From Blepharisma stoltei ATCC 30299 (Eukaryota > Protista > Ciliophora), in NCBI GenBank assembly GCA_965603825.1, contig CBFDEM010000022.1:62001-126000 (forward strand): 64,000 nt of DNA, in the 5' to 3' direction. A model generated the notes under the pieces. It saw nothing but the letters and a program-made list of their open reading frames with translations, was not told the DNA's origin and ran no database searches. Shown here piece by piece: positions 1 through 43,161 of the stretch. A program made the translations under genes and the position numbers. The stretch's first letter is position 1. Every line of letters starts with the position of its first letter.

Positions 1-2839
1 ATCACTATTACGCAAATCTAATGCAATTTTCATATATTGCTTTGCGTAGATCTGCCAAAGGGCATCCTCCGCTTTTTCTCTAACATCAATATCATCAGCA
101 GTATCAAGTTTCTTGTACTCATGAATGATAAAACAAGCTTTTTTATATTTAGTAGGGATGAAAATCCCATCAGCCTTCTTTCTAAATCTATTTGGTGCTT
201 CGGAATGTAATGTATAATTTGAATCTTCTGTCATAATTGAGGCCAGCATCGCCATTCCTCCTAGTAAGATTTGAAAGTCTGCCTCTGTTTTACTAGTGTT
301 ATCTGTCATCTGATCAAGGACCATTGATTGCATTAGATTCTTGAATTCGGTTTTATCATCTAAGGTGATGTTAAATTTCTCAACTATCTTACCAATATCA
401 ACTTTTCCTAAGCCTATTTTTCTGTTAATTCACTTTAAAAGCAGTGAGTTGTAAAAACTCTTTTTTATTTCTCTATTAGGGACTACATATATTCAAGCGC
501 TCACAATGTTTTCCTTTTCCTTTTTAGTTATGTTATATGGTGTTAAATAGCCAAAATGTAGCAATAGCGAGAAAAATTTTTTTGTGCTGTTGAAATCTAA
601 TGGCAAATCTATATAGGAATCAATTTCTTCTCTTAATTCAAGATAGCCATTTTTCATTATTTCAAACAATTGATCATAAGATTCTAGGGAATTAAATGCT
701 GAGACCAGTGGATTAAGGTTATTAGTAAAGATTCAATAAGGCTTGAGAGGATTTCTATCTTGAGATTTTGCTTTTTCTATGCAATTTATTATTGAATGGG
801 GATTGTAAATTCTTTGTCCACTGATATTGTATCCGTTGCATCACAACTTAATTAATTCTTTTTGCTCTAATATTTCCTCATCTGTGTTACTCTCCAAGTT
901 TCGTTCGATTAGAGTATTTATCTCTGATTCTGTGAAGCCAAAAAATTGGGAGTATTCTATATTATTAACAGTATATGTATTAAAGCTGTTTATTCATGAA
1001 AACTGTGTCCCTCTAATAGGTAAAATGCCTACCAAAATCACTTTAAAAACAAAATCAGGTGTTTGTGCGCATATTCGGGCCAGGATATCTTCTATTATTA
1101 TTAGTAATCCATTTTGGTATGGAGTATTTATGAAACGACTAAAAGGGCTATCATAATCATCCACAATAATTATTGCATTCTTCTTGTAAAATTTATGTGT
1201 CAATAATATTTTCAAGAACTTTTATGCTTTTATTTTTATAATTTATTACTACATCTGGATTTTCTGAAAGATAATTTTTGATAACTTGGTCCAAGGATTC
1301 CCGATACTGTTGGTGATATTCCAAGTATGCGTCTTTGATTATATCTAAAACTGCACTCTGGTAATATTCCTCTACAGACTCATTTTCAAATATTTTTCTT
1401 ATATTGGAAAATCTTAATAAAATTGTTGGAATTTTCCCAGCATAGTTTTTGTAATAATAACCATTTTTTTCAGTTATTATTTTTAAACATTTTGTTTTGT
1501 CCAGGTTATCAACATAAATGTTATCTTTTCCACCAGTGAACAAGTACAAATTTTTAAAATTCCCAGAAGCATCCTTTCTTGGATGGAAAAAAGTTTTTAG
1601 CATGTTTATATTTAGAGTTTTCCCCCATTTTTGCGGACGGAAGATTAATATATTGGTATGACCATTATCTAAAATTTCTTTGATGAGTAATGATTTATCA
1701 ATATAGCCATCTTTATTCCTAACTGCCTTTTTAAAGCTACCGGAATCAGTAAACCATTTCCCACCAGATCTAGCCCTCATGATTGCTTGATTTGTTTGAG
1801 GTGTTAAACTTTTAATTTGCGGTAGGCGATGTGGTGTAGTAAATGTATCATCAATTTTAAATTTAAGATATCATGAAGAGCCTTTATTTTTTATTGTTCT
1901 AATCAAATTTATCGCCTCTCCTCATAAATCTGATTGCTTATACTCTCAAAGAGTGCAAAGTTGGTGGATTATTAAATTTTTTTGGATGAATTCCATTTCT
2001 TTTTCAAGCGCTTCCCAGGCTGAGATTTCATCAATCAATGCACAAATGATTTCCTTATTTACAATTTCAATCTCATTTGAGCTATAATTCGGCTGAGGAA
2101 GAGGGACATTTGGACTCTTGTCTAATTCGATGCTATGCACACCTAGAATATCTCTCAGCTTTAAACTAAAGGATGGGCAAAAACCACGAAAGGGCTCTAA
2201 AAACTCCGTGCTTCCGCTTGAGATCAGCATAATTGCGTTGAAAACAGACCATAATCCGCTTTCATGAGGATGCTCATGAAGCTTAAGACTTATTTCTTCA
2301 ATATTTACATTAGGAAAGAAGCCTCCAAATTTCAAGGTAGGGCCATTCTCTCCAGAATTCCTAATCTTGATTTCTTTTTGTATCAAATATTTCATAAGTT
2401 TCGGTATTTGCAAACCTAACCCGAAAGAGTCTATTAAAAATACAGTTTCTGAAGCTCTTTCGAGAACATCTCCATGAATAAGTGTGTGATTTTTTGGAAG
2501 AATCACCATCATCTGCCATAATGAATTTGATTCTGAAACTTGGCTGAGGATTTTTGATTCTCAAAATGTAACAAGCGGCTTTAGAAGAGCAAATCTATCG
2601 CTCTCAAGTGATTGACTTATAGCTGAGATATAAAATAAGACACCTGATGTTTCATCTTCGAAGGCGGGAGATTTTCCATTTGAAATATCAGGGCCTATTA
2701 TATGAATTCGATCGCCATAAATCAGTTGCAAAGCTTCTTTTATGCCATAAGCAGTTGAGCTAGGAACTGTAGAGCAAGATTCTGGCCACTCTGGGAGGTC
2801 CAAGAAGAATTTGTACAAATTGGCTTCCATATCAGTCAT
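1..2839 (-). pseudogene. CE-like + AAA-ATPase-like + PD-(D/E)XK gene, copy 1; frameshifted by a ~107-110 bp deletion at ~1195; runs off window start
   Basis: ORFs 2561-2839, 1946-2512 and 1193-1780 are one frame joined by TGA=Trp. Motifs YIDKS and RPQKWGKT are present. TAA at 1193 arises at the deletion junction; IIVDDYD, FGFTESE and IHEYKK continue in another frame. Confidence 0.85.
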
Positions 2840-3119
2840 TATTTTATTAAAAGGGGCTATTGGGTTTTTATATTTTCCTTAATTATTTTATGTATTAATT
2901 TTAGAAATAAATATAGAGGCTCTCAAAGTTGTAAAAAAAGGCATCTTCATTGCTTACAAGGTCTGCAGAGCTGCTAATAACTTTGATTTCTAGTCTATGC
3001 TTCTTGATCAGTTTGAGTTTTCAATATATTAATGAATTTGATGAGTCCAAAATTTTTGGAAATGTGATCATTTTTGGGCGCTTTTAAAAAAGTTAATAGA
3101 TCAGAAAGCTACTATTTTG

Positions 3120-3654: not shown

Positions 3655-6600
3655 TTATTTATCGTATAATTTTGGCTTTTTGCCTAGTTCAATTTCATCA
3701 TAGTCAAGCTTGCGTTTCATCACTAAGCCTTCTTCTCCTTCAATGTAACCATAACTATCGCCACCAATATTTTTGATAAGATCGCCAATTCTTTCTGCAC
3801 CGAGAGATCTTCTTTCTTCAATTTTTTCATTTTGAGACCCACTTTCTCCACATAATTTGGCTGATGCAGCCAATATTCCCCCGCTGGCTGAACTAAATTT
3901 TGTATTTATAATGGAAGCAAGATTGAAGTCGAAAGAATGCTCTTTAATCAGCATACTTCATTTATAACTATATTGAGCTTTAAAGAAAACAATACCACGG
4001 ACTATCATTTTGTCAAAATAATTGTAATGCTGATCACTATCACGCAAATCTAACGCAATTTTCATATACTGCTTCGCATAGATCTGCCAAAGGGCATCCT
4101 CCGCTTTTTCTTTAACATAATTAGCATCAGCAGTATCAAGTTTCTTGTATTCATGAATGATAACACTAGTTTTTTTATATTTAGTAGGTATGAAAATCCC
4201 ATCAGTCTTCTTTCTAAATATATTTGGTGCTTCGGAATGTAATGTATAATTTGCATCTTCTGTCATAATTGAGGCCATCATCGCTATTCCTCCTAGTGAG
4301 ATTTGAAAGTCTGCCTCTGTTTTACTAGTGTAATCGGTCATCTTATCAAGAATCATTGATTGGATAAGATTTTTGAATTCAGTTTTATCATCTAAGGTGG
4401 CGTTAAACTTCTCAACAATCCTACCAACATCAACTTTTCCTAAGCCTATTTTTCTTTTAATTCACTCTAAAAGCAGTGAGTTGTAAAAACTCTTTTTTAT
4501 TTCTCTATTAGGGACTACATAGATTCAAGTGCTCGCAAGGTTTTCCTTTTCCTTTTTAGTTGCTCTATATGGTGTTAAATAGCCAGCATGCAGCAATAGT
4601 GCGAAAAAAATATTTGTACTGTTTAAATCTAATGCCAAATTTATATAGTTATAAATTTCTTCTGATAATTCAAGATAACCAGTTTTCATTAATTCAAACA
4701 ATTTATCATAAGATTGCAGGGCATTAAATGCTGAGGCCAGTTGATTAAGGTCATTAGTAAAGATTCAATAAGACTGGAGAGGATTGCTATCTTGAGATTT
4801 TGCTTTTTTTAAACAACTCATTATTGAGAATGGATTGTAAATTTTTTCTCCACTAATATTGTATCCGTTGTATCACAGCTTAATTAATTCTCTTTGCTCT
4901 AACATTTCCTCCTCTGTATTACTCTGGAAGTTTCGCTCTATTAGAGTATTTACCTCTGATTCTGTGAAGCCAAAAAATTGGGAGTATTCTATATTTTTGA
5001 TTGTAAACGTATTATATTTGTTCATATATGAAAATTCTATCCCTTTAATAGGTAAAATGCCTACCATAATTACTTTCAAAACAAAACTAGGTAAATCTGT
5101 TCATATTGAGTTCAGAATATTTTCTATTATTTCTAATGCTTCATTATGGTGAGGAGCATTTATTGCACGACTAAAAGGGGCATCATAATCATCCACAATA
5201 ATAATTACGTTCTGCTTGTAAAATTTATGAGCAAATTTAGCAAGATTAGGCACAGCTTCTGATAGCATTTCTAATGAACTATTATTATCTTTGCAATCTC
5301 TAAACTCTTGAATATGCAATGGTAAAGTTATTTTATATGCATCGATTATACTTTCAAGCTCTAATATGTTTGTATTATCATAATCTATCACAATATTTGG
5401 ATGCTTTGAAACATAATTTTTGATAACCTCATCCAATAATGTGCAATACTCTGGGTAATATTTCGAGTATGCTTTTTTGATTATTTTTGAAAATTCAGTG
5501 AGGTAAAATTCATTCACAGGGTTATTGCCTAATTTTTTTATTTTGGAGAATTTTAGAAAAATTGTTGGAATTTTCCCAGCAAAATTTTTGTAATAATCGC
5601 CATTATCTTCTGTTATTATTTTTAAACATTTTGTTTTATCCAAGTTGTTAACATCAATGTTATCTTTTCCACCAGTGAACAAGTACAAATTTTTAAAATT
5701 CCCAAAAGCATCCTTTTTTGGGTGGAAAAAAGCTTTTAGCATGTTCATATTTAGAGTTTTACCCCATTTTTGCGGACGTAAGATGAGTATATTGGTGTCA
5801 TCATTAATTAAAATTTCTTTGATGAGTAATGATTTATCAATATAACAATCTTTATTCATAACTACCTTTTTAAAGCTTTCGGAATTAGATAACCATTTAC
5901 CATGAGATTTAGCCCTCATGATTGATTGATGTGTTGGAGGTGTTAAACTTTTAATTTCTGGTATGCGATATGGTGTGCTAAATATATCATCAGATTGAAA
6001 TTTTTTATGTAATTCTTCCAGAGGAGCTTTTATTCTTCTCATAAAATTTTGCGCCTCTACTCATGAGCCTGATTGCTTATATTCCCAAAGAGTGCAAAGT
6101 TTATTGATATTTAAATATCTTTGGATGTATACCATTTCTTGTTCAAACACTCCCCAGTGTAAGATTTCATCAATCAATGCATTCCTGATTCCCTCATTCA
6201 CAAAATCAAGATCACTTGAGCTATAATACAGCTGAGGAAGATCATTTGGACTCTTGCCTAATTCGATATTATGCTCATCTAGAATAGCACTCAGCTTTAA
6301 ACTAAAGCATGGGTCAAATTTACTAAAGGGCTCTAAAAACTCCGTGCTTCCGCTTGATATCAGCATAATTGCATTGAAAATAGACCACACTCCACTTTCA
6401 TGAGGATACACATGAAGCTTAAGACTTTTTTCTTCAATATTTACATTAGGAAAGAAGCCTCCACATTTCAAGGTAGGGCCTTTCTCTCTAATCACGATTT
6501 GTGTTTGTATCAAATATTTCATAAGTTTCGGTAGTTGCAAACCTAGCCCGAACGAGTCTATTAAAAAGACAGTTTCTGAAGCTCTTTGGAGAGCTTTTCC

Positions 6601-6954
6601 ATCAATAAGTGTGTGATTTTTGGGAAGAATCACCATCATCTGCCATAATGAATTTGATTCTGAAATTTTTGATTCTCAAAATGCAACAAGTGGCTTTAAA
6701 AGAGCAAATCTATCACTCATAAGTGACTGATTTATAGCTAAGATGTAAAATAAGACACCTGATGTTTCATCTTCGAAGGCGGGAGATTTTCCATTTGAAA
6801 TATCAGGGCCTATTATATGAATTCGATCGCCATAAATCAGTTTCAAAGCTTCTTTTATGCCATAAGCAGTTGAGCTAGGAACTGTAGAGCGAGATTCTGG
6901 CCACATTGGGAGGTCCAAGAAGTATTGGTACAAACTGGCTTCCATATCAGTCAT
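3655..6954 (-). CDS. CE-like + AAA-ATPase-like (PF09820-type) + PD-(D/E)XK nuclease (PDDEXK_9-type) protein, copy 2, 1099 aa, intact
   Basis: 3300-nt single frame with only TGA interruptions (gaps read by hand). Motifs YIDKS, RPQKWGKT, IIVDDYD, FGFTESEV, WYNGY, YNPFS, LLHAGYLT, VPNREI, E..KKTDG..IIHEYKK..ALWQIYAKQY. Confidence 0.9.
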
Positions 6955-7504
6955 TATTTTATTAAAAGGGGCTATTGGGATTTTATATTTTCCTTATTAA
7001 GATTTAAGAAATTATCAGGGCTGCTTTTTACAAATTTTGCAAGGCTGAAAGAGATTATTAGAACAGAATCAATAAATTTCATGTAATAAAAAGAATTATG
7101 AAATATATCGGCTTCTAATCTAGATATACACTCTAATATTTATAATTCCCATAAGAAAGCTTCGTCATGCGTTGTGCTTGATATCGGCTTGAGGAATATC
7201 CTGACACAAGCTTAATTCCTATTTTAGAGTTATCTAGAGTCATAACAAGACCTTCTAAAAGAAGCTTAAGCTGATAAAATATCTTAAGAATTTTCGTTCC
7301 AATCTACTAAAATCACCACAAATAACGTTCGGGATCATAAGCACATTTAGCAAGCTCCTGTCTATAAGTCTCCATCTAAATAATTTTATTTTTAATTTTT
7401 AACTCTAAGGAATTCTTCCAATGAATTATAAATTTAACGCAAACTCTTACCTAGACATATGAAAGTATTTGCGAACTCTCATTTATCCTCAATATGAAGA
7501 CGCT

Positions 7505-8922
7505 TAGAAAAATTGTTGGAATTCGCCCAGCAAAATTTTCTAATAATAACCATTATCTTCAGTTATTATTTTTAAGCATTTTGTTTTGTCCAATTTGAAC
7601 TTAACATTATCTTTTCCACCAGTGAACAAGTACAAATTTTTAAAATACCCAGCATCATCATTTCTTGGGTTGAAAAAAGTTTTTATCATATCCATATTAA
7701 GTGTTTTCCCCCATTTTTGTGGACATGAGATGACTATATTGGTGGAACTAGTTTTTAAAATTTCTTTGATGAGTAATGATTTATCAATATAGCTATCTTT
7801 ATGCAGAACTGCCGTTTTAAAGTTTTGGGTATTCATTATCCAATTGCCTCCAGATTTACCCTTTATGATTGATTGATCTGTTGGAGGTGTTAAACTTCTA
7901 AATTTTGGTAGGCGATTTGGTGTGCTTGATATATCATCAAATTTAAATTTAAGACATCATGAAGAGTCTTTATCTACCTACCAGAGGAGTTTTTATTCTT
8001 CTAATAAAATTTATCGCCTCTCCTGATGAGTCTGATTGCTTATACTCTAAAACAGTGCAAAGTTGGTGGATATTTAAACAGTTTTGGATGAATTCTATTT
8101 CTTTTTCAAGCACTCCCCAGTGTGAGATTTCATAAATCATTGCACTACTGATTTCCTTATTCATAAATTCAATTTCATTTGAGCTATAATTCGGCTGAGG
8201 AAGAGGCCATTTTGACTTATGTCTAATTTGATATTGTGCTCATCTAGAATAGCACTCGGGTCAAACTTACCAAAGGGCTCTAAAAAGTCACCGTTTCCAC
8301 TTGAAATCAGCATAATTGCATTGAAAACAGTCCACAGCCCACTTTCATGAGGATGCTCATGAAGCTTAAGACTTTTTTCTTCAATATTTACATTAGTAAA
8401 GAAGCCCCCAAATTTCAAAGGAGCGCTATTCTCTCCAGAAATCCTAACCTCGATTTCTCTTTGTATCAAATATTTCATAAGTTTCGGTATTTGCAAACCT
8501 AACCCGAACGAGTCTATAAAAAATGCAGTTTCTGAAGCTCTTTCGAGAGCATTTCCATGAATAAGTCTGTGGCTTTTTGGAAGAATCACCATCATCTGCC
8601 ATAATGAATTTGATTCTGAAGATTGGCTGAGGATTTTTGATTCCCAAAATGCAACAAGTGGCTTTTTAAGAGCATATCTATCACTCTTAAGTGATTGATT
8701 TATAGCTGAGATGTAAAATAAGACACCTGATGTTTCATCTTCGATGGCGGGAGATTTTCCATTTGAAATATCGGGGCCTATTATATGAACTCGATCGCCA
8801 TAAATCAGTTTCAAAGCTTCTTTGATGCCATAAGCAGTTGAGCTAGGCACTGTAGAGCAAGTTTCTCTCCAAGTTAGGAGGCTTGAGAAGCATTGGTACA
8901 AACTGGTTTCCATATCAATCAT
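7505..8922 (-). pseudogene. AAA-nuclease family copy 3, truncated pseudogene
   Basis: Homologous N-terminus. 18-nt deletion (FDP/SAIL), frameshift near 8205, TAA at 7970, TAG at 7540; similarity ends near 7505 shortly after Walker A. Confidence 0.85.
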
Positions 8923-9326: not shown

Positions 9327-9865
9327 AATTCAAAATTGTAATAAATTGATGAATTTGGTCAACTGTGAGGTGAGGCTTGTCCTTGATAAATTCCACAATT
9401 TTTTAAAACCATCAGGTTTGCCTGTTAGCAAAAAGTAAAAAGTTTGTAAAAGCTTCTTCGTTTCCTTCATTTTCTTTTTCTCAGAGTTCTTTTACAGCTT
9501 TATCTAAATCATATGTATTGTAAGTGTATCGATTATCATAGAAAGGCTTGTCCTCGTCGAGGATTTTTTTAATCATCTTAATTTTTGATAAAAAGGATTA
9601 GGATTTTTTTGAGAAGTTCATTAACTTGGAATGTAGTAGACAATGAAAGGTGAGAACATTTTTTATCGAGAAGAGCACGAACTACCTGAGGCAGATGAGA
9701 ATTGATAAATGTATGAGATTGGTCTGAAGACATGAGATTTTGATCAAATTCAGAAATTTGTGACTCAACTTCGATTAATGATAATTGCAAATCAAGATCG
9801 TCACGATTCAGATTAGCGCGGAGGTCTGCGTAGGAGATTCTATAATCTTGTTTGGCTTCTGACAT
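9327..9865 (-). pseudogene. 5' fragment of the USP gene (mirror of 26788-27406)
   Basis: First ~90 aa identical to ORF 26788, followed by two internal deletions, a TAA stop and truncation. Confidence 0.9.
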
Positions 9866-10052
9866 TTTATATAAAGGAATGAATATTCTGTCTTTATTAG
9901 ATGGTATTTAAGTGGTAAAATGTTTTATATAAATATGATAGAATTTTTAAATAGTTATTCTTGTGGATCTAAGGCAGAATATTATTATATTTTCAATATT
10001 TCAATAAAAACATAGATAAATACATAATCCTATTAAGAAAATTTATAGAAAT

Positions 10053-13000
10053 ATGCAGCATTCTTCCAAACTCGGCTCACCGGGTACTCAAAATTCTAAA
10101 AATCGATCCAAGAAGCACCTGAGCAACGATTTGCAAAACTCATGCACTAGAAAAATATATTCACCAAGTAGAGATAAATTCAATGATAATGCAAGGATAG
10201 CCAGTTATGGTCATTCAGGTGATGAAGATCAATTATTCGGGCAAAACCTCACTCCAAGGTCTGATCAAACTTTGAAAAATGTAGAAACTATGTGATTTGA
10301 AAGCGAGCTTACAAAAATTATAAATGAATTGAATGGATTTGCGCCAAATAAAACTAGACTGGAAAGCATGCCCTCAGTAATTTTGGAAAAAATTAGAGCA
10401 ATGAAGAGTAATGAAAGAATTTTACAGCAAAAATTGGATGAGATGATGAATAATGCAAATTATAAGGTGATATTTATGTAGAATCCTAACTATAGAGGCA
10501 ATGAAGAAGTTTTTAAAAATAAAATCATTGAAAAGTATCAAAAAAAGATCAATGAACTGAAGCAGAGCCTACAGAAAAAGTATCAGGAAGAAATTAATGA
10601 GTTAAAGCAGATACTAGAGCAAAAAGAAGCAATTTTAAACTCACAAGAGTCCACCATGAAAGATTATTGAGATCGTGCAGTAGAACTTAAGAATAGATGC
10701 GCAGAATTACAAAAAGAAAATGATATCATAAAATCTCGAAATGAGCAGCACTTGTCTAGAAGTCCAAATAGAAATAATGTTGAATCAAAAACGGAAACAA
10801 TTGAAAAAATATATAGAGACTTGGAAACCTCAAACTTGGCCTTAGAAAGAGAAAATAATAGATTAAAAGAAAAAATTCAAAATTTGAGCAATCAATCAGT
10901 TGAAAAGTCAAACATTTGGCGTAAATCTGAATTAGAAAATAAAAGAAGTAATAACGATATGCTAAAAAAAGAAATAAAAGATTTGAAGCAAGAGTTAACT
11001 GCTTTAACCGAAGACAAAAGGCAACTTATTAATAGTGAGAATAATTATAAAAGAAAAATCGAAAAATTGCAAAAAGAAATAAAAGAAAACAGCCAAATAC
11101 CAAATATTGGGATTCTTGAAAACAACTTATCTAAGGCATCATCAGTAATAAATGAATTGCAAGAGAAAAGTCATAATCTTGAAGAGTGCAATAGCCAGCT
11201 ATCAAAGCAAAATGAAGATTTACGATCAGAAATAATTGATTTAAAACTAAAATTAGCAGGATCAGAAAGCAATTCCAATTTATATCTTACCTCAAAGATA
11301 AATTATGATAGACTCTTATCTGAGTCAAAGTCAGAGAAAAACAGATATGAAAGGCTGATTAAGGAATTAAGAGAAGAAATCGAAAAATTAAATAGAGAGC
11401 TTCACTCTTCAAATCAAAGTAAAAAAGAATTGCAAAAGAAAAATGATGATTATTGGCAAAATTTCAATCAAGCTTTAAATGATATTGCAGCAAATGAAGC
11501 TGACATTAAGAGACTTAAAGATGACTTAGAATCCAAAGATCTAATAATAAGACGCTATATAAAAGAAGTTCAAAGTCTTGAAAATGATAAAATTAAACTT
11601 ATAGAGCAGATAAATAGCTATGAAAATATAAGGCTGCGTGCTGAAACTGAGCTTTATCCATTGAATCAAAAAATTAAAACACTCGAAATTGAAAATAGGC
11701 GTTTTGCTCAAGAAAATTCAAATTTGAGAGAAAATGCTAAAGAATTAGAAACTGATATTAAGCAGGCTAAGAATCTTTTAAATGAAAACCAATCCATAAA
11801 ACAGAAAATTAAAGATCAAAACAGTGAACTTGAAGCAAAAATAATAGCAAACGAGGGATTAAGAAAAGAATTGAGCGAATTAAATAATAAACTAGCAGAA
11901 GAAACATCTAAAAACCAAATTCTCTCAACACAATTAAAAAAACTTCAATATGATAGCAAAGCAAGCGCCAATACCATAGGAGACCTGACTAAAAGAAATG
12001 AATCATTGCAATCTCAGCTTAAAAAGCAATCAGAAGAAAATAGTAATTTGAAAGAGGCTATTGACGACTTGAGGAATGAATTCTTAACAGAATGTGAAAG
12101 ATCAAAAAAAGTCGAAAATAAAATAGAAATGATTGTAGAGAAAATATCGAATTATGAAGAAATTGAAATTGGCCACACTATAGACGGAGGTTTAGATGAT
12201 TTAGCATTGGCTGTCAATAAAATAATAAAAAAAATCATAAGCCTGAATAATGAAATTGACAAAGATGGTATGGAAATTAAAGAATTATCTTATAAAAATG
12301 ACTCTCTTTTAAATGAAATTAACAGATTGAAAATTTAAGCTCAGTCCTTAAAAAATAAATTTATAATCGAAGATGATAAAGAAAAGATAAAAAGTTTAGA
12401 AAGATTATATAAAGATTCATTAGAAAAATTAGAAGCGGCTAAAGAAGAACTTGAAAATAGAGCAAAATTGAATCAGGAGTTTGAAGATAAACTAGGAGGA
12501 CTTATCAATCTAAACGAAGAGCTCCAAGATGCTTTCAAAGAAATGAACTCAATCCCTATAAATCAAATGAAGAAAAATTAGCAACAAAACTCAAAAAATA
12601 TAAAGACATGGTTAAAGATCTAGAAAAACAAAACTCAGATCTTTTATATGAAAATTTAAATTGGAAAAATAAAGAAAGCAACTATATTCAGGCAAAAGAA
12701 GATATTGAAAAGCTAAAAGTCACTGTTAAAAAATTATCGAATAACTTTTTGAAAGAAATACAAAGTAAGGATGCAATAATATCAGACTTAAATAAACAAA
12801 TTGAGATTAACCGGAATAATTTTCAAGCAGAAATTAAAGCCAAAGAGGACAAAATTTTTGAGCTAGAGAATGATATTGAAGCTTTAATTGAGGACCAAAA
12901 GGACCAAGAACATGATTTGATGCCATATGGAATTATTGAAGAAAAGTTGAGTAAGGAGAGAGAGGAGGATAAAAGTAGAATTAATAGAGAATTGCAAGAA

Positions 13001-15978
13001 ACAAAGGAAAAATTGGAAGAGTCTGTTAAAAAATACAATGAAAGTCTGAAAATTATTGAGCTGATGGAAGACCTAAAATTGAAAATGAATGATAAAATTT
13101 CAAATTTAACTGAAGAATGTGAGACTAAAGATCAGGATCTTAAAACATATATTGACAAATATAATCAAAGTCAATCTACTATTGATGAAATAGCAAATAA
13201 AAATTGTATACTAAATGATAAGCTTTCTCAGCTTAAATTAGAGCTAGAAAAATATAAGGGCGAAGCAGATATCACTGATCAAATAAGACTTGATTTAGAA
13301 AAAAAGCATGAACTCTATAAAGCATCAACAAATAAGCTTATAGACACTCAAAAGCAAAATATTTCTTCCTTAGAAAATGAAATTTCTGAATTGAAAGAAA
13401 ATCTCAAGCGTATTATTACTGAATCGGAAATGAAAGATAACGAGTATGATACAAATATATCAGAACTGCAAAATAAATTCAACGAAAATCTTCGGTACTT
13501 GCAAATTTTGCAGGACAATTATAATTCTCTACTGCTTAAAGAAGAAAATAGCCAAAAATTAATGTCAAAGCTTGAAAAGAAAAAGAAAAAGATTGAAAAT
13601 CTAAAAGCAAACATTTTAGATTTAAGCAAGTCAAAGGAAGAAATGGAGATTAAGATCCAGGATCTCACAAAAGATTTACAAAATCAAGATTATCTGTCAG
13701 ATCTTAAAAACAGCAAAGAAAAATTGGAAAGAGAGTATCAATCTTTAGAAGAGTGTCACAATGCTTCAGTTAAAAATAATGAAGAATTGAATGAGAAACT
13801 CAATGACTTAATTAATGAAAAGCAGTCTCTTCAAGCGTTAATTGACTCTAAGCAAGTAGAAATAGCTGAAAAAGAAAATGAAATAAATATACAAAAATCA
13901 ATATGGCAGGAAAAGCATGAAATGCTGATAGACCAATTAAATAAAAAAGAAAGCGAAATCAAAAAAATGAAGATACTATCGGAAATAATAAATTATTATT
14001 TGAAGAAATTTCATCATTAAAAGAAGAAATTGAATTATTAAAGAATGAAAATACACTTAAAGATGAGAAATTAAAAGATCTAGAAGAATTACGCGAAATC
14101 AATGATAATTTGAATTCAAAAATAGAAGAATTAACTCTCTCAGTTGAGGATTTAAGAGAAGAACAATTATGACTCGAAAAAAAAAATAAAGAACTGGAAA
14201 TACAAAATGTTTTATTAAAAAGAGAAAAAGAAAAATTGGCCTTTGAAGCAAAAGCCCAAAAGGAAAATGATGGAATAAGTGAAAAGCTAAAAGAAGATTA
14301 TGAATATCTGAAAAATAAAAAATTAGAGTTAACTAGAGAGCTTGACGAACTTAAATTAACATACAGTAGAGAACAATTGAAAAACTCTGAAAAGGAGAAA
14401 TTATTGGCTAAAGATATTTCTGATTTGGAAAATAATAATAAAAATTTATTGAAAGATATTGCTGCTAAAAATAAAGAATTAGAAAATTTTGAAAATATCA
14501 CATCAACTTTTGAAGAATATAAGAGAAAAAATGAAATTTTATCGCAAAAAATAGAAGAAGATAAAGAAGTCATAGAGCTCTTAAATAGAGAAAAATCGGA
14601 TTCAAATCTAAAGTATCAATCATTTCAAATTGAAAAAATAGAGCTTATTAAGCAAAACGACGAGGAAAAATCAGATCTCAACTCAAAAATCAATGATTTA
14701 CGCCAGCAAATCCTTCAAGCTAGACAAGAAAATGAATCAGTTATTGAGAACTATTTAAAGCTAAAGGAAACAACAAATAAGCTAAATTCCCAAATTAATA
14801 GACATGGAAGTCTATTATTAGAAAACAAAAATTTAGAAAGCAAGCTATTAATTATTGAAAAGGAAAATCAAGGATTAAATGAAGAAATAGTGAAAAAGGA
14901 TAATGAAATTAACTATATAAAAGAAACATACAATGACAAAATTAAATCCTTAAACAATCTCATTGAAGATTCAAAAATTGTATTAAATTCAAAGGAAGTA
15001 GAAATAGAGAAAAAAAATGAAATAATTCAAGATTTGAATTATCAGCTTCAAGCCAGGATTCAAGAACTAAATGCAAATGGTGATTTAATAGCTCAATACG
15101 TTGAAGAAATCCAAAGAAAAGATATGGAAATTCTTGAGTATGAAGAAATTATTAAAACTATTGATGAAAAATATGAAACGAAAATAAAAGAAATTTCTGA
15201 TAAGTATTCAGCAGAAATAAAGGGTAGAGATTATAAAATTATAAGGCTTGAAGAAGAGAGTCAAAGAATTGAATTAGAGCATCATAATTTATTAGAAGAG
15301 TACGACAAATTGCTAAATACTAACATGGATTTAGAAGAAAATATTAAAAAATTAAATGAAAAAATCCAAAATCTTGAAGATGAAATAAATAATTCTCTCA
15401 ATCAAGCAAGCCCAGGAGAAATAGATAATGATAAAGAAAAAATCGAAGTAATTATAAAGTAGACTGAATATGAAATACTTTTAGAAGAATTTAATGAAAT
15501 AAAAAGTTCTTTAGATGTTTTACCAGGAAATGAAGAAGAAATATCAAAGCTTAAAGAAGAAATCTCTAGGAAAACCATAGATCTAGATAGCGCTCATACA
15601 GAATTAAATGTATTGGTTATTTAGAATATAAACGAAAGATTAAAAGAGAGTTTAAGTGATAATATTGACCTAAGAAGTAAAATTAGAGAGATTGAGATTA
15701 ATAATCAAGAAAATCAAACACTTTTAAATAGGACTTCTGTCTTAGAAAAAGAATTATCGGATTATCAAAATCAAATTGGAAGCAATGAGAAGCTAAAAAG
15801 TGAGTTAAATGATGCAAATACGCAAAATGAGATGATGAGAAAAAAGGTTGCCGAATATACAAGTTTGATTGAAGATCCCAAGTTTCAGCTAAAAGCACAA
15901 GGGCCGAATACGAACAACTATATTCATTTTTTAGAAGAGCTTAGAAAAATGTATAGTGAGGCTTCAAGAAATGAATAA
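10053..15978 (+). pseudogene. Disrupted copy of the large coiled-coil gene
   Basis: Near-identical to 20487-26600. TAA at 12336 is created by a 9-nt deletion; frame changes occur near 12550 and 13970, with a ~170-nt deletion near 15435. Keeps 15-nt introns at 10467-10481, 15448-15462 and 15610-15624. Confidence 0.85.
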
Positions 15979-16399
15979 CCAATAAGCCTGGCTCTTCATT
16001 TAATTTATACATTTATTAAATTTTTATATATTGTGAAATCTTTGTTTCTTGTATGTTTACATTTTTTAATCAATAAAAAATTTAATAAATAGTGAAAGGA
16101 CGAAATAGAAATTATTTTAGATATTTTTTATATAAAAGTCAATTTCAATATATTTATTTTAAATATAAACATTTTTATCATGAAGTAATAAGTATTTCAG
16201 ATTATTGATAATATAATGTTTCCTATCAATTTAAGTTGATATTTTATTTGAAATTTTATCTATTCTTAATAATTTTAAAGCATCATTATCTCCCTTACTG
16301 ATTCAATAATTTCATAAATATTGAACACATTTAAACTAGTATAAATAAATTATTAAATTTATTAAAGAAAAACAATTACTGATTATAAAAATTAATCAA

Positions 16400-17242: not shown

Positions 17243-17516
17243 ATTTTATTACCAATAAATATAAATGACGATTTTTCTTAAATTTGTGATTCAGGAATTA
17301 CTCATATTTTTGCATACTCCTAAATATAGCACCAATTTTATTAAAATCTGGCAATTTTTGTCTATGACAGCAAATAATTTCTATTATAATTCTTAACAAT
17401 TATTTTCTGACTTAAAGACAAAATAAAATTAATATTCAAATTCATTTATTGACGCTGTTGATTTTATTTTAAGCCTTCCATGAAATTATGAATTTCAGTA
17501 TAGTGGTTATATAAAT

Positions 17517-18464: not shown

Positions 18465-18648
18465 TTTCTTTAAATATCATCCCTAACTATGAAGATTCTA
18501 TTTAGTTTTAAATATATTTAACCCTTCTTATAGAGATGCTTTTCCTGCATTAAGTCTCTCAAATAGCCTAAAATTTCAGACAATTTCTTTCTTGCTTATT
18601 TAACTCAAATTTTAAACTAAAATATTATCCTGTATAAATCTCATAAAA

Positions 18649-19074: not shown

Positions 19075-19510
19075 TTATTATTTGTAAATAAATCTGTCAA
19101 AATAAATATTAAATCGCGTAAAGTTATTTAAAATTAAGCTTAATAAATGATTTGCTACATTATAGATAATATTCCTTTTATTTTTCAAGTTAAAAAGTGT
19201 ATTATTATTTTTTAATAGAAAATAAGGAATCTTCTTTAAATATTGAATAGTCATGCTCCTTTTTGTGCTGATTTTTAACAAAAAATTGATTTGGAAGAGC
19301 AATAAACTCAAAAAATACATTCAAAAAAATCAATAAGAAAAAAGGATTTAAAAGGAAATTTGCAGATTCAGCTCATGGAATAATATTGCTAAGCATTAAT
19401 ATTGCCATTTACAAATTAATCTCAGTTATTGTATTACTGCATGAAATTGATCAAATCTCGAACACACTTAATCAATTAAAAATTTGATTTAAATATAAAT
19501 ATAGCAATTT

Positions 19511-26200: not shown

Positions 26201-27406
26201 TATTCATCATCTCATTCAATTTTTGCTGTAAAATTCTTTCATTACTCTTCATTGCTCTAATTTTTTCCAAAATTATTGAGGGCATGCTTTCCAATTTAGT
26301 TTTATTTGGCGCAAATCCATTCAATTCATTTATAATTTTTGTAAGCTCGCTTTCAAATCACATAGTTTCTACATTTTTCAAAGTTTGATCGGACCTTGGA
26401 GTGAGATTTTGCCCTAATAATTGATCTTCATCACCTGAATGGCCATAACTGGCTATCCTTGCATTATCATTGAATTTATCTCTACTTGGTGAATATGTTT
26501 TGTAAGTACATAAGTTTTGCAAATCGTTGCTCAGGTGCTTCTTGGATCGATTTTTAGAATTTTGAGTGCCCGGTGAGCTGAGTTTGGAAGAATGCTGCAT
26601 ATTTTTATAAATTTTCTAAATATGATTATGCATTTATCTATATTTTATTGAAATACTGAAAATATAATAATATTCTGCCTTAAATACACAAGAATAACTA
26701 TTTTAAAAATTCTATCATATTTATATAAAACATTTTACCACTTAAATACCATCTAATAAAGACAGAATATTCATTCCTTTATATAAAATGTCAGAAGCCA
26801 AACAAGATTATAGAATCTCCTACGCAGACCTCCGTGCTAATCTGAATCGTGACGATCTTGATTTGCAATTATCATTAATCGAAGTTGAGTCACAAATTTC
26901 TGAATTTGATCAAAATCTCATGTCTTCAGACCAATCTCATACATTTATCAATTCTCATCTGCCTCAGGTAGTTCGTGCTCTTCTCGATAAAAAATGTTCT
27001 CACCTTTCATTGTCTACTACATTCCAAGTTAATGAACTTCTCAAAAAAATCCTAATCCTTTCTATCCAAACATTAAAAGCTGAGCAATTCGGCACTATCG
27101 AGATGATTAAAAAAATCCTTGACGAGGACAAGCCATTCTATGATAATCGATACACTTATAATACATATGATTTAGATAAAACTGTAAAAGAACTCTGAGA
27201 AAAAGAAAATGAAGGAAACGAAGAAGCTTTTAAAAACTTTTTACTTTTTGCTAACAGGCAAACCCATACAACACACAATATTCTTTTTAAATACAATTTA
27301 AGTGTATTTATAAGATATGAAGGGTTTAAAAAAGTTGTGGAATTTATCAAGGACAAGCCTCACCCCACAGTTGACCAAATTCATCAATTTATTACAATTT
27401 TGAATT
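20288..27406. repeat. Right arm of inverted duplication (left arm ~9327-16165)
   Basis: Reverse-complement match to the left arm. Confidence 0.93.
20487..26600 (-). CDS. Large coiled-coil protein, ~2022 aa; introns 26172-26186, 21048-21062, 20886-20900
   Basis: Four ORF pieces share one frame, linked by TGA=Trp and three stop-containing 15-nt GT-AG introns. E/K/L/N-rich heptad composition. Confidence 0.85.
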
Positions 27407-35721: not shown

Positions 35722-36318
35722 GTTTGTTGACTTATAAGAAGGAGAAATTAATCATTAAGCTATTTAAATGGAAAAGATGAAAGTGGAGTTGTGGAAATAG
35801 ATAGCTACTAGAAGCCAAAGCTTATGGGTTTAGACAAAATTTTATTTAGAGTTAAAATTAAAAATAAAATTATTTAGATGGAGACTTATAGACAGGAGCT
35901 TGCTAAATGGGCTTATGATTCCGAACATTATTAGTGATGATTTTTAGTAGATTGGAACGAAAATTCTTTTGATATTTTATCAGCTTAAGCTTCTTTTTTA
36001 GAAGCTCTTGCTATGACTCTAGATAACTCTAAAATAGAAATTTAGCTTGCGTCAGGATATTCCTCAAGCCAATATCAAGCACAACACATGACGAAGCTTT
36101 CTTATGGGAATTATAAATATTAGAGTGTATATAAGTATCACACTAGATTAGACCGATATATTTCATAATTCTTTTTATTACATGAAATTTATTGATTCTG
36201 CTCTAATAATCTCTTTTGGCCTTGCAAAATTTGTAAAAAGCAGCCCTGATAATATCTTAAATCTTAATAAGGAAAATATAAAATCCCAATAGCCCCTTTT
36301 AATAAAATACTGACTGGT

Positions 36319-39300
36319 ATGGAAGCCAGTTTGCACCAATACTTCTTGGACTTCCGAGCGTGGCCAGAATCTCGCTCTACAGTTCCTAGCTCAACTGCTT
36401 ATGGCATAAAAGAAGCTTTGAAACTGATTTATGGCGATCGAATTCATATAATAGGCCCTGATATTTCAAATGGAAAATCTCCCGCCTTTGAAGATGAAAC
36501 ATCAGGTGTCTTATTTTACATCTTAGCTATAAATCGGTCACTTATGAGTGATAGATTTGCTCTTTTAAAGCCACTTGTTGCATTTTGGGAATCAAAAATC
36601 CTCAGCCAAGCTTCAGAATCAAATTCATTATGGCAGATGATGGTGATTCTTCCCAAAAATCACACACTTATTGATGGGAAAGCTCTCCAAAGAGCTTCAG
36701 AAACTGTCTTTTTAATAGACTCGTTCGGGCTAGGTTTGCAACTACCGAAACTTATGAAATATTTGATACAAACACAAATCGTGATTAGAGAGAAAGGCCC
36801 TACCTTGAAATGTGGAGGTTTCTTTCCTAATGTAAATATTGAAGAAAAAAGTCTTAAGCTTCATGAGCATCCTCATGAAAGTGGAGTGTGGTCTGTTTTC
36901 AATGCAATTATGCTGATTTCAAGCGGAAGCACTGAGTTTTTAGAGCCCTTTAGTAAATTTGACTCATGCTTTAGTTTAAAGCTGAGTGCTATTCTAGATG
37001 AGCATAATATCGAATTAGGCAAGAGTCCAAATGATCTTCCTCAGCTGTATTATAGCTCAAGTGATCTTGAGTTTGTGAATGAGGGAATTAGGAATGCATT
37101 GATTGATGAAATCTCACACTGGGGAGTGCTTGAAAAAGAAATGGTATACATCCAAAGATATTTAAGTATCAATAAACTTTGCACTCTTTGAGAGTATAAG
37201 CAATCAGGCTCATGAGTAGAGGCGCAAAATTTCATGAGAAGAATAAAAGCTCCTCTGGAAGAATTACATAAAACATTTCAATCTGATGATATATTTACCA
37301 CACCAGATCGCCTACCACAAATTAAAAGTTTAACACCTCCAACACATCAAACAATCATGAGGGGTAAATCTGATTGCATTTGGTTTACTGATGCCGAAAA
37401 TTTTAAAATGGCAGTTAGGAATAAAGATGGTTATATTGATAAATCATTACTCATCAAAGCAATTTTAAATAAAGGTGCCATTAAAATACTCATCTTACGT
37501 CCGCAACAATGGGGTAAAACTCTAAATATGAGCATGTTAAAAACCTTTTTCCACCCAAAAAAGGATGCTTTTGGGAATTTTAAAAATTTGTACTTGTTCA
37601 CTGGTGGAAAAGATAACATTGATGTTAACAACTTGGACAAAACAAAATGCTTAAAAATAATAACTGAAAATAATGGTTATTATTACAAAAACTTTGCTGG
37701 GAAAATTCCAACGATTTTTCTAAAATTTTCCCTAATAGAAACATTGGGCAATGAGCCTGTGAAGGAATTTTACCGCAGTGAATTTTCAAAAATAATCAAA
37801 TTAGCATACTCGAAATATTACCCAGAGTATTGCACATCCTTGGACCAAGCTATCAAAAATTATGTTTCAAAGCATCCAGATATTGTAATAGATTATAATA
37901 ATAAATGCATACCAGAGCTTGAAAATATTATTGACACATATAAAATAACTTTATTACCGCACGTTCAATTGTTTAGAGATTTCAAAGATGATAATTCATT
38001 AGAAATGCTTTCAAAAGCTGTTCCTAATCTTGCTAGATTTGCTCATAAATTTTACGAGCAGAATGTAATTGTTATTGTGGATGATTACGATACCCCTTTT
38101 AGTCGTGCACTAAATGCTCCTTACCAAAATGAAGCATTAGCAATTATAGAAAAAATTCTGAACTCAATATGAAAAAATATTCCTAGTTGTGTTTTGAAAG
38201 TAATTATGGTAGGTGTTTTACCTATTAAAGGGATAAAATTTTCAGAAATAAACACCTTTAATACACATACAGTTAAAAATGTGGAATACTCCCAATTTTT
38301 TGGCTTCACAGAATCAGAGGTAAGTACTCTTATTGAGCAAAATTTGGAGAGTAACACAGCTGAGGAAATGTTAGAGCAAAAAGAATTAATTAAGCTGTGA
38401 TATAATGGATACAATATTAATGGACAAAAAATTTACAATCCATTCTCAATAATAAGCTGTATAGCACAAGCAATGTCTCATGAAAGCAATCCTCTCCAGC
38501 CTTATTGAATCTTTAATAATAACCTTAGTCAACTGGTCTCAGCATTTAATGCCCTGCGATCTTATGATAAATTGTTTGAAATAATGAAAACTGGCTATCT
38601 TGAATTATTAGAAGAAATTGATAACTATATAAATTTGTCATTAGATTTAAAAAGTCCAAAAATTTTTTTCGCACTATTGCTGCATGCTGGCTATTTAACA
38701 CCATATAGCACAACTGAAAAGGAAAAAAAAAACCTTGTGAAAAAATGAATATATGTCGTTCCTAATAGAGAAATAAAAAAGAGTTTTTACAACTCACTGC
38801 TTTTAGAGTGAATTGACAGAAAAATAGGCTCAGGAAAAGTTGATATAGTTGAGATAATTGAAAAGTTTAACACCACCTTAGATGATAAAACTGAATTCAA
38901 AAATTTTATCCAAACAATGATTCTTGATAAGATGACTGATTGCACTAGTAAAACAGAGGCCGACTTTCAAATCTTATTAGGAGGAATGGCGATGTTGGCT
39001 TCAATTATGACAGAAGATGCAAATTATGCATTACATTCCGAAGCACCAAATAGATTTAGAAAGAAGGCTGATGGGATTTTCATCCCTACTAAATATAAAA
39101 AGGCTAGTGTTATTATTCATGAATACAAGAAACTTGATACTGCTGATGCAATTGATGTTAGAGAAAAAGCGGAAGATGCCCTTTGGCAGATCTATGCAAA
39201 GCAGTATATGAAAATTGCGTTAGATTTGTGTGATAGTGATCAGCATTATAATTATTTTGACAAAATGATAATCCGTGGTATTGTTTTCTACAAAGCTAAA

Positions 39301-39609
39301 TTTGGTTATCAATGAAATATGGTGATTAAAGAGCACTCTTTCGACTTCAATTTTGCTTCCATTGTAAATACAAAATTTAGTTCAGCTACCGGGGGAATAT
39401 TAGCTGTATCAGCCAAATTGTGTGGAGAAAGTGGGTCTCAAAATGAAAAAATTGAAGAAAGAAGATCTCTCGGTGCAGAAAAAATTGGTGATCTGATCAA
39501 AAATATTGGTGGCGATCATTATGGTTACATTGAAGGAGATGAAGGCTTAGAGATGAAACGCAAACTTGACTATGATGAAATTGAATTAGGCAAAAGGCCA
39601 AAACTATAG
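36319..39609 (+). CDS. CE-like + AAA-ATPase-like + PD-(D/E)XK protein, copy 4, 1096 aa, intact
   Basis: Single 3291-nt frame with TGA=Trp and the same motifs as copy 2. Inverted counterpart of 3655-6954, including ~470 bp upstream. Confidence 0.9.
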
Positions 39610-40010: not shown

Positions 40011-40119
40011 GAAAAACAGAGACATTTTCTGACGCGAGTATACTCTTAAAAAGCCACTTGTTGCGTTTTGGGAATCAAAAATCCTCAGCCAAGCTTCAGA
40101 ATCAAATTCATTATGGCAG

Positions 40120-43100
40120 ATGATGGTGATTCTTCCAAAAAATCACACACTTATTGATGGAAAAGCTCTCGAAAGAGCAGCAGAAACTGTATTTTTAATA
40201 GACTCTTTTGGGTTAGATTTGCAAATACCGAAACTTATGAAATATTTGATACAAAGAGAAATCGAGATTAGGATTTCTGGAGAGAATAGCGCTCGTTTGA
40301 AATTTGGAGGCTTCTTTCCTAATGTAAATATTGATGAAAGAAGTCTTAAGCTTCATGAGTATCCTTATGAAAGTGGGCTGTGGACTGTTTTCAATACAAT
40401 TATGTTGATTTCAAGCGGAAACAATGAGTTTTTAGTGCCCTTTAGTAAGTTTAACCCATGCTTTAGTTTAAAGCTGGGAGCTATTCTAGACGTACATAAT
40501 ATCAAATTAGACAAGAGTCCAAATGGCCCTCTTCCTCATCTGAATTATAAGTCAAATGAGATTGAATTTGTGAATAAGGGAATCAGTAGTTCATTGATTC
40601 ATGAACTGTCAGACTGGGAAGTGCTTGAAAAAGAAATGGAATTCATCCAAAATCATTTAAATATCCAACAACTTTGCACTGTTTGAGATTATAAGCAATC
40701 AAACTTATGAGGAGAGGCCAAAAATTTTGTTAGAAGAATAAAAGCTCTTCTGGAAAATATAGACTCTTCATGATGTCTTAGATTTAAATTTGATGATATA
40801 TTTATCACACCACATCGCCTACCACAAATTAAAAGTTTAACACCTCCAACGCATCAATCAATCATGAAGGGTAATTCTGGTGGTAATTGCATAATTAATA
40901 CTGATCACTTTAAAGAGGCAGTTATGAATAAAGATTGCTATATTGATAAATCATTACTCATCAAAGAAATTTTAACTAGTAGCGCCCCAAATATACTCAT
41001 CTTACGTCCGCAAAAATGGGGGAAAACACTAAATATGAGCATGCTAAAAGCTTTTTTCCACCCAAGAAATACTTTTGGGAATTTTAAAAATTTGTACTTG
41101 TTCACTGGTGGAAAAGATAACATTGATGTAAACAACTTGGACAAAACAAAATGCTTAAAAATAATAACTGAAAATGATGGTTATTATTACAAAAAGTTTG
41201 CTGGGAAAATTCCAACGATTTTTCTAAAATTCTCCAAAATAAAAGAAAAATTGGACAATGAGCCCGTAGAGGAATATTACCGCAGAGCAATTTCATATAT
41301 AATCAAAGACGCATACTTAGAATATTACCCAGAGTATTGCACATCCTTGGACGAAGCTATCAAAAATTATAGCGCTTTCCCGAGGATGGCGCGGAATGGC
41401 GCCATCCTCGGGAAAGCGCTATATGTTTCAAAGCAGCCAGATATTGTGATAAATTATAATAATACATCCATATTAGAGCTTGAAAATATTATTGACGCAT
41501 ATAAAATACCTTTGCCGTTGCATGTTCAATTGTTTAGAGATTACAAAGAAGATAAGCCATCAGTTATACTATCAGATGCTGTGCCGAATCTGGCTAGATT
41601 TGCTCATATATTTTACAAGCAGAAGGTAATTATTATTGTGGACGATTATGATACCCCTTTTAGTCTTATATTAAATGCTCCTTACCAAAATGATGCATTA
41701 AGAATAATAGATAATATTATGACATCAATATGCACAGATAGACCTCCTTATGTTTTGAAAGTGATTTTGACAGGCATTTTACCTATTAAAGGGATAAGAC
41801 TTTCATGAATAAGAAGCTTTGAATTATATACAGTTAAAAAGGCAAAATACTCCCAGTTTTTTGGCTTTACAGAATCAGAGATAAATACTCTTATTGAGAA
41901 AAACTTGGAGAGTAACACAGAGGAGGAAATGTTAGAGCAAAAAGAATTAATAAAGCTGTGATACAACGGATACAATATTAGTGGGCAAAAAATTTACAAT
42001 CCACACTCAATAATGCATTTTTTAGATGAAGTAAAATCCCGAGATAGTAATCCTCTCCAGCCTTATTGAGCCGATAATGACCTTGATTCATTGATCCCAG
42101 CATTTAATGCCCTACAATCTTATGATAAATTGTTTGAATTAATGAGAACTGGCTATCTTGAATTATCAGAAGAAATTGATAGCTATATAAATTTGCCATT
42201 AGATTTCAGCAACACAAAATTTTTTTTCGCACTATTGCTTCATGCTGGCTATTTAACACCATATGGAACAACTAAAAATGAAAAGAAAAACCTTGTGAGC
42301 ACTTGAATATATGTAGTTCCTAATAGAGAAATAAAAAAGAGTTTTTACAACTCACTGCTTTTAGAGTGAATTAACAGAAAAATAGGCTCAGGAAAAGTTG
42401 ATATTGGCAAGATAGTAGAGAATTTTAACACCACCTTAGATAATAAAACTGAATTCAAAAATCTTATCCAATCAATGATTCTTGATAAGATGATCGATTG
42501 CACTAGTAAAACAGAGGCAGACTTTCAAATCTTACTAGGAGGAATAGCAATGCTTGCCTCAATTATGAGAGAAGATGCAAATTATACATTGCATTCCGAA
42601 GCACCAAATATATTTAGAAAGAAGGCTGATGGGATTTTCATCCCTACTAAAGATAAAAAAACTAGTGTTATAATTCATGAATACAAGAAAATTGATACTG
42701 CTAATATTAAGAATATTAGAGATAAAGAAGAGGATGCCCTTTGGCAGATCTATGCAAAGCAGTATATGAAAATTGCGCTAGATTTGCGTGATAGTGATCC
42801 GCATTATAATTATTTTGATAAAATGATAATCCGTGGTATTATTTTCTACAAATCTCATTTTGGTTATAAATGAAATATGGTTATTAAAGAGCACTCTTTC
42901 GACTTCAATATTGCTTTAAGGATAAATAGTGTTTTTACTTCAGATGAGGGGGGAATTTTGGCTGTATCAGCCAAATTATGTGGAGAAAGTGGGTCTCAAA
43001 ATGAAAAAATTGAAGAAAGAAGATCTTTTGGTGCAGAAAGAATTGATGATCTGATCAAAAATATTAGTGGCGATGATTATAGTTACATTGGAGAAGAAGG

Positions 43101-43161
43101 ATTAGAGATGAAAATCAAACTTGACCCTCCAAGCAAAAAGCCAAAATTGCAGGATAATTAA
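40120..43161 (+). CDS. AAA-nuclease family copy 5, N-terminally truncated, 1013 aa including an 18-aa insert from a palindromic element
   Basis: Homology starts near 40045 (LKKPLVAFW); first ATG at 40120; frame open to TAA at 43161 with TGA=Trp. Confidence 0.8.
41368..41423. mobile_element. TA-bounded perfect palindrome (25-bp arms, 6-nt loop), IES/MITE-like insertion
   Basis: TATAGCGCTTTCCCGAGGATGGCGC-GGAATG-GCGCCATCCTCGGGAAAGCGCTATA. Paralogs read AAAAAT-TAT-GTTTCA without the 54 bp. Confidence 0.88.

Follow-up and report, generated by a model that had tools for sequence, protein, structure and literature searches.

The DUF1703 family, which joins a PF09820 NTPase to a PF08011 nuclease, is described as expanded in Cardinium cCpun (PMC6387759), and a bacterial-type, DUF1703-like pair of an NTPase and a restriction endonuclease (REase) has entered a eukaryotic nuclear genome in Tribolium Medea1 (CR-NTPase8 and CR-REase7), where the active-site Glu lies on the first core strand and a His stands three residues downstream of it (PMC11342252, PMC6387759). 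Further points of comparison are the CifB proteins (CidB, CinB and pLbAR_38) of Wolbachia and Rickettsia (PMC6133264, PMC12445526), the Crinkler (CR) effectors (PMC5289972) and the STAND NTPases (archaeal PAB2304 and SSO1545, Avs and NLRs). Here we describe a gene family of the NTPase+REase conflict-protein type in the ciliate Blepharisma stoltei ATCC 30299, five copies of which lie in a 64,000-nt stretch of contig CBFDEM010000022.1 (assembly GCA_965603825.1, positions 62,001 to 126,000, forward strand; hereafter the window). We put the probability of our best explanation at about 45%: that this transcribed family likely derives from an effector of a Midichloriaceae endosymbiont and encodes a predicted ATP-gated, nucleus-targeted DNase that likely defends the ciliate against intracellular invaders, a reading drawn from sequence comparison and a structure model.

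The layout of the protein is a CE-clan deubiquitinase (DUB) fold, a PF09820 STAND-like NTPase, a PD-(D/E)XK nuclease and a tail resembling a bipartite nuclear localization signal (NLS). With DUF1703 it shares the order of NTPase and nuclease and a tendency to multi-copy expansion, but it differs by an additional N-terminal pseudo-peptidase plus linker of ~340 aa, a nuclease too divergent for PF08011 and a eukaryotic host. Medea1, which we compared by description and not by sequence, has the same kind of NTPase+REase pair and the same position of the catalytic Glu, whereas the ciliate family is without transposon ends, carries the CE header and has Lys at E+3 in 10/10 paralogs, its His being at E-1 instead. 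In contrast to CifB, each ciliate protein contains one nuclease domain rather than two, its DUB is N-terminal and dead, and it is encoded by the host; no cifA-like gene lies adjacent, as the upstream spacers contain no ATG-initiated open reading frame (ORF) over 76 aa, which leaves room for a distant antidote. Crinklers likewise combine a header, an NTPase, a helical region and an REase with predicted nuclear action, yet the ciliate header is a CE-clan fold with bacterial homologs and not the ubiquitin-like or helical CR header, and none of the seven window frames scanned matched a CRN Pfam family. An earlier note, made from the DNA letters alone, had pointed to Crinkler-type effectors, a link that the CE header does not support. 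STAND NTPases appear to share the NTPase core fold (Z 11-16) and the predicted fusion of an enzyme effector to a switch; the ciliate proteins, however, lack a repeat sensor domain, and their nuclease is C-terminal. By the defining tests, then, the family is not a member of the CifB, Medea or Crinkler groups.

The window was read with translation table 4 (UGA as Trp; UAA and UAG as stops), which merges table-11 fragments into three long frames, two of 1112 codons (3655-6993, -; 36271-39609, +) and one of 1062 codons (39973-43161, +). Self-BLAST and tblastn identified exactly five copies in the window (83-92% DNA identity) and no relic of a sixth. All are without introns, and two are intact, one is 5'-truncated, one frameshifted and one decayed, as in the earlier picture of five paralogs of one intronless ~1100-aa gene. 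The intact copies are B (3655..6954, -; 1099 aa, record P0001) and D (36319..39609, +; 1096 aa, record P0002). In copy A (1..2839, -), the frame is broken by a 110-nt deletion at 1194-1197; the 3' end of this copy falls beyond the window, and its C-terminus is complete in record P0341. An intron at this break was ruled out, since GT-AG borders are absent. Copy C (7500..8922, -) is a pseudogene that has three frameshifts, stops near codon 469 and has lost its 3' half. Copy E (40043..43161, +; record P0003) is a 5'-truncated tandem duplicate of the unit of D, with the first ~80 codons gone and the first ATG at 40120; it has an in-frame 54-nt insertion, and its NLS-like motif is without its first half.

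The reading of UGA as Trp in this family is real. TGA accounts for 8/16 Trp codons in copy B and likewise 8/16 in copy D, TGA and TGG interchange among the copies at codons 93 and 290, and the family-conserved W694 of the WYNGY motif is encoded by TGA. The window is gene-dense, with ~31% GC and eukaryotic genes (USP, ubiquilin, kelch, sorting nexin and S1/P1 nuclease), and its 15-nt introns agree with the published description of the Blepharisma stoltei genome (PMC9942806). The GC content at third codon positions of copies B and D (0.27-0.28) falls inside the range of six host genes (0.22-0.32), indicating that assimilation of the family is complete and that it did not enter the data by contamination. 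Blepharisma stoltei protein records include at least ten long members (P0001-P0009 and P0231, three of them window copies), located together with partial members on nine contigs, and at least seven further partial records (P0074, P0075, P0077, P0078, P0079, P0138 and P0343); the copy number is a minimum taken from protein records. These paralogs and the introns bear out the ciliate host proposed earlier. The long paralogs are 25-85% identical to each other.

A structure model of copy B (17-row alignment, pLDDT 78) was compared with 48,161 chains. Residues 1-230 (6265..6954, -) form a CE-clan, Ulp1/OtDUB-like pseudo-peptidase, of which residues 22-230 matched OtDUB (Z 12.7, rmsd 3.4, 167 aligned), RickCE (Z 12.6), the CidB DUB (Z 10.4) and Ulp1 (Z 9.8). 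The positions of the His-Asp-Cys triad and the oxyanion Gln are occupied by L103, D133, S187 and H181, respectively, so the triad is not kept. In a 43-row CE alignment, the His was replaced in 9/9 and the Cys in 10/10 long Blepharisma proteins (P0008 has a Cys shifted one residue from the catalytic column), while His, Asp and Cys were all kept in 10/10 Rickettsiales rows; the Cys was retained in 7 of 16 metagenome rows.

The P-loop NTPase of copy B occupies residues ~351-720 (4795..5904, -; Walker A K399, Walker B D588-D589) and is followed by a helical, winged-helix-like region up to residue ~880. Pfam detected PF09820 in B, D and E with E values of 9e-18 to 9e-17 and 62-65 bits against a cut-off of 26.1. 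Residues 351-826 were nearest to archaeal STAND-like ATPases (2qen, Z 16.0, rmsd 3.8, 306 aligned; 2fna, Z 15.1), followed by plant NLRs and Avs5 (Z 11-16 for the STAND-like set, including a Z of 13.3); Orc1/Cdc6 and TnsC also matched (Z 9-10.6). The Walker A Lys is kept in 10/10 paralogs, and Walker B reads DD in six, DE in three and DG in one, with DE in bacterial rows.

The PD-(D/E)XK nuclease lies at residues ~881-1020 (3895..4314, -), with E908, D918, E935-x-K937 and Q957. The E, D, ExK and Q are kept in 10/10 paralogs even though these share just 25-85% identity; E908 on the first core strand is likewise conserved in 10/10, and the catalytic residues and secondary structure of the model follow the alpha-beta-beta-beta-alpha-beta core of this fold. 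A profile of the nuclease region matched PF08011-bearing proteins of a local set at E 1e-9 to 6e-8. PF08011 itself was found in 0/7 window frames at E<=0.05, and weak matches to it were confined to relatives such as G454 (E 8e-4). Thus, of what the earlier note had read in the letters, the quoted motifs are all present, and the pseudo-protease, the PF09820 NTPase and the nuclease stand; the profile match to PF08011 does not. The C-terminal bipartite NLS-like motif of copy B (residues 1080-1095; 3670..3717, -), a prediction only, has its pattern matched in 9 of the 10 long proteins of Blepharisma, and a K[KR]x[KR] tail is present in 8/11 Blepharisma rows versus 15/182 generic homologs of 520-640 aa. 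A hydrophobic N-terminus is absent, and a sequence search of the PDB gave no matches. The anatomy is best read as that of a predicted nuclear, switch-controlled DNase.

A scan of 185,579 genomes gave 293 matching stretches. Among the best 80 of these, the N-terminal domain was also covered at one locus, in Ca. Cyrtobacter zanobii, a ciliate endosymbiont according to a reference title in PMC9539572. Residues 28-1051 of copy B align collinearly over all three domains with residues 24-1107 of Cyrtobacter P0338 (26%, E 2e-67), a 1971-aa protein with intact H-D-Q-C that neighbours TrwC relaxase, Toprim primase, resolvase and Rpn/PDDEXK_2 genes in a genome with four paralogous loci. The family alignment was matched by 15 of 47 Midichloriaceae genomes, one of which, G276, encodes the best bacterial core match (34%, E 1e-94), a 1824-aa CE-NTPase-nuclease-ankyrin protein adjoining rimP-nusA. 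P0338 with its paralogs and the G276 protein share with the ciliate family the CE peptidase, PF09820 and PD-(D/E)XK domains in the same order and a HEYK plus WQI/QIY nuclease signature; the CE subtype is the same in Cyrtobacter and different in G276. These bacterial proteins of 1800-2900 aa keep the triad and have C-terminal CE-like, hydrophobic, DnaJ-like or ankyrin regions. Unlike them, the ciliate proteins end after the nuclease with a basic tail.

Trees were built on chosen subsets (93, 49, 43 and 31 rows) of 375 core-bearing rows. In the 43-row core tree, seven Blepharisma rows formed one clade (100/99), which joined G276 and 15 metagenome rows in a further 100/99 clade. The Cyrtobacter rows branched immediately outside this clade, and those of Rickettsia, Bacteroidota, Legionella and Cardinium at a greater distance; G276 took the same place in a quick LG+C20 tree, and the trees from other subsets were similar. 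The approximately unbiased (AU) test rejected Midichloriaceae monophyly (p 2e-49) and, weakly, a clade without G276 (p 0.021). The bacterial affinity claimed earlier is therefore sharpened to Rickettsiales, specifically Midichloriaceae, and the Legionellales, which the earlier note had named for comparison, fall in the outgroup. Basic tails are present in 13/23 metagenome relatives, several paralog pairs of which come from contigs of equal length; these relatives may be other protists. We regard a transfer from a Midichloriaceae-like bacterial donor to the ciliate as likely; the likely donor, proposed from a collinear counterpart of the ciliate protein in a ciliate endosymbiont, is new relative to the earlier note.

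Searches for the CE subtype recovered it from 8 of 401 Rickettsiales genomes, with two marginal hits that contain stops, and from 1/48 genomes of the family of G403; it was not found in the order of G402 (0/41) or that of G404 (0/8), which does not equal absence. It appears to be a mobile module, since it is fused to unrelated regions in the other six Rickettsiales genomes examined or matched. We observed it on NACHT plus ankyrin in G461 (family of G403; L213:8219-15796) and joined to unrelated regions in G119, G036 and G363 (loci L172 and L176-L179). Loci L081, L080, L158, L159, L211 and L212 encode Midichloriaceae effector-like proteins of 1800-2900 aa with interchangeable CE-clan heads on the NTPase-nuclease core, some of them in relaxase, primase or resolvase contexts; this family apparently had not been described before.

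Elsewhere, a metagenome DNA scan gave at least 78 loci, all of them two-domain homologs by score and coverage among the matches listed, and 53 plasmid records matched, none over more than 80% of the query. The 30 proteins with names checked among the named matches of the protein searches, which score the ~8000 best-sharing candidates, included no other named ciliate. Literature listings showed no paper on this family; Zhang et al. 2016 may list ciliate CR-type proteins, the supplements of both Blepharisma genome papers may mention the family or the palindrome described below, and the main text of the genome paper gave 0 matches for ATPase or PF09820.

Tandem and segmental duplication have spread the family. 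The spacer upstream of copy D (35838..36318, +) was copied with the gene and has counterparts at 6994-7412 and 3317-3619. On the 3' side, ~350 nt of flank are the same in D and E, and no terminal inverted repeats bound B, D or E. These common spacers and the lack of terminal repeats indicate tandem duplication, not carriage by a transposon. Divergence between B and D is 1-4% over codons 1-300 and 6-14% beyond (sliding table), a step that is a sign of gene conversion. Between the two opposed arrays lies an inverted segmental duplication (9327-16165 / 20285-27406; span 9327..27406; 95% over 6.2 kb). In its 9327-16165 copy a ~1700-aa coiled-coil gene is split into three frames, and a USP gene was copied as a 5' stub only.

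RNA was examined in four runs of one study, whose contigs come without stage, strand or level information. Three 15-nt GT-AG introns of neighbouring genes are skipped in RNA contigs, indicating that the runs contain mRNA. Contigs with no differences were found for all five copies (D, 1208 nt; E, 565 nt; B, 503 nt; A, 282 nt; C, 153 nt), the next-best copy being 78-89% identical (89% for the D contig), and those of B and E each occurred in three runs. In 4/4 runs, a contig at least 99% like A runs past 1197 into undeleted family sequence, so that an unbroken allele or a near-identical paralog of A must be transcribed in those samples. The A-B spacer (3035-3600) is also covered by RNA contigs in 4/4 runs; it holds short ORFs only, up to 76 aa, whose open state is not kept in the duplicated spacers.

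Selection was estimated by GY94 fits for seven regions and three copy sets, with p values uncorrected for multiple tests. On A, B, D and E, the ratio of nonsynonymous to synonymous substitution (dN/dS, omega) was 0.69 overall (p 6e-5 versus 1), 0.42 for the nuclease (p 0.002), 0.59 for the CE domain (p 0.03) and 0.70 for the NTPase (p 0.01), compared with 1.12 for the linker (p 0.72) and 0.95 for the helical region. Purifying selection thus acts on the family, most strongly on the nuclease; the birth-and-death evolution proposed earlier is likewise supported. Pseudogene C compared with B, D and E gave 0.81-0.91, indistinguishable from 1. The NG86 ratios above 1 of the linker are not significant under GY94 and so do not establish positive selection.

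These data bear on an alternative that we consider unlikely, namely that a symbiont gene was passively duplicated with its neighbours and now decays under relaxed selection with no present job. Three of the five window copies are damaged and at least seven partial records exist elsewhere, omega stays near 1 across the linker and the helical region, adjacent host genes were duplicated and broken in the same region, and even pseudogene C is transcribed. Such baggage, however, would hardly keep the nuclease residues in 10/10 paralogs down to 25% identity while losing the protease residues in all, nor would it be expected to show a nuclease omega of 0.42 or ~1100-codon frames still open on several contigs.

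We view as rather improbable a selfish toxin-antidote driver of the Medea or cytoplasmic incompatibility (CI) kind, in which a protein from the parental macronucleus would kill meiotic products or zygotic nuclei without a matching copy. The NTPase+REase logic of Medea1, the domain types of CifB (PMC11342252, PMC12445526, PMC6133264) and the NLS-like tail would suit it, as would a multi-copy, recombining and polymorphic family, the undeleted form of A in RNA contigs being an instance. But no partner gene was found, the ORFs upstream of any copy being at most 76 aa and not kept open in the duplicated spacers; there are no terminal inverted repeats; and the single nuclease domain has no His three residues past the catalytic Glu. 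The selfish-element reading of the earlier note lost ground because neither terminal repeats nor a partner gene were found. A variant of comparably low probability is that an effector of the symbiont reproductive-toxin type is run from the ciliate genome as an incompatibility or drive system, with the dead DUB as a built-in antidote or sensor. If true, this would be a Medea/CI analogue in a single-celled eukaryote, and many metagenome protists would have made the same capture, with the protease repeatedly inactivated.

The host undergoes programmed nuclear destruction, and a transcribed, predicted nuclear DNase could have been domesticated for development, helping to break down the old macronucleus or those meiotic nuclei that are not selected, or assisting DNA elimination. 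We think this very unlikely, as the family is patchy, with no other named ciliate among the named matches, its weak constraint and rapid turnover are unlike those of a core developmental gene, and the main text of the genome paper does not mention it. Equally remote is a reversed direction or a non-Midichloriaceae source, in which an old protist or giant-virus gene was taken up by symbionts: G276 nests among possibly eukaryotic metagenome rows, the nearest Atlas clusters of the CE domain are largely viral (0.93-0.94) and eukaryote-to-bacterium origins have been proposed for such domains (PMC6133264), but the named successive outgroups are bacterial, all that viral scans returned were two-domain homologs of a generic kind (2 and 18 loci) without a CE match, introns are absent from the genes, and the triad, which bacteria keep intact, is degenerate in the host.

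We therefore return to a domesticated nuclear defence nuclease. From an effector of ~2000 residues the host would have retained the N-terminal ~1100 and discarded the bacterial C-terminal part, with its second CE-like region and hydrophobic or ankyrin region. The dead DUB fold may act as a sensor or anchor by still binding ubiquitin, SUMO or some protein of a pathogen, and the STAND-like NTPase would restrain the nuclease until a trigger arrives. With the basic tail importing the protein into nuclei, the nuclease could then cut invader DNA or kill the infected cell, and fast change in the linker and helical region, together with repeated birth and death of copies, might track changing targets. 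We prefer defence over drive because no antidote and no mobility feature were found, and over a developmental role because of the patchy distribution and turnover.

Several observations weigh against this explanation. Hydrolysis may be impaired, as Walker B is DD or DG in 7/10 paralogs; the fold search covered the CE and NTPase regions, with the nuclease domain outside its coverage; and PADLOC (0/4) and NCBIfam (0/5) gave no family matches. An overall omega of 0.69 means weak constraint, three of the five local copies are damaged in this assembly, and gene conversion violates the single-tree codon model. As to origin, the groups of the AU test were named after a tree had been seen. The base of the Blepharisma and G276 clade is a polytomy, most of the closest relatives are metagenome proteins, and the CE-domain tree is unresolved at its base; the polytomy and these relatives limit how closely the donor, the date and the number of transfers can be fixed. 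Finally, activity, localization, oligomer and trigger are predictions, and the link to any invader is conjectural.

The neighbourhood of copies D and E has further features. Inside copy E, in frame, lies a TA-flanked perfect palindrome of 54 nt (41368..41423), at a site that is empty in D and resembling a tiny miniature inverted-repeat transposable element or a retained internal eliminated sequence. A second palindrome lies at 43692-43749, the pair (54-58 nt) having in common a 14-bp arm core and a 6-nt loop; the outer arms differ yet pair perfectly (z -10.8 and -12.0; 4 matches versus 0.03 expected). Loose-ended RNA contigs suggest more copies elsewhere, the pattern had 0 matches in viral contigs, and palindromic repeat families of other sizes are mentioned in PMC9942856. 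At 41355-41418, RNA contigs of 2/4 runs lack 62 nt spanning the hairpin, with a 5-nt microhomology at the junction; this may be a reverse-transcription skip rather than excision. The second palindrome is closely followed by a tRNA-Leu(AAG) gene (43831-43912). Copy D is immediately preceded by a gene for a secreted-type S1/P1 nuclease (34837-35721), for which an RNA contig from one run shows 17 differences in 796 nt and may thus represent another allele or a paralog.

Gene transfer to ciliates from symbionts that are obligately intracellular has been reported as rare, with five candidate genes in one Euplotes species (PMC13071891). Here, a whole multi-domain effector with a collinear counterpart in a ciliate endosymbiont appears recoded, expanded and under selection in the host. 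The family connects DUF1703- and Medea-type nucleases, CifB-type DUB-nuclease chimeras and the symbionts of protists, and it hints at a Midichloriaceae effector family, so far unnoticed, whose CE-clan heads are swappable. Blepharisma stoltei would offer a culturable system in which to address the role of these widespread NTPase-nucleases, and to see whether symbiont toxins are converted by their hosts into immunity or drive.

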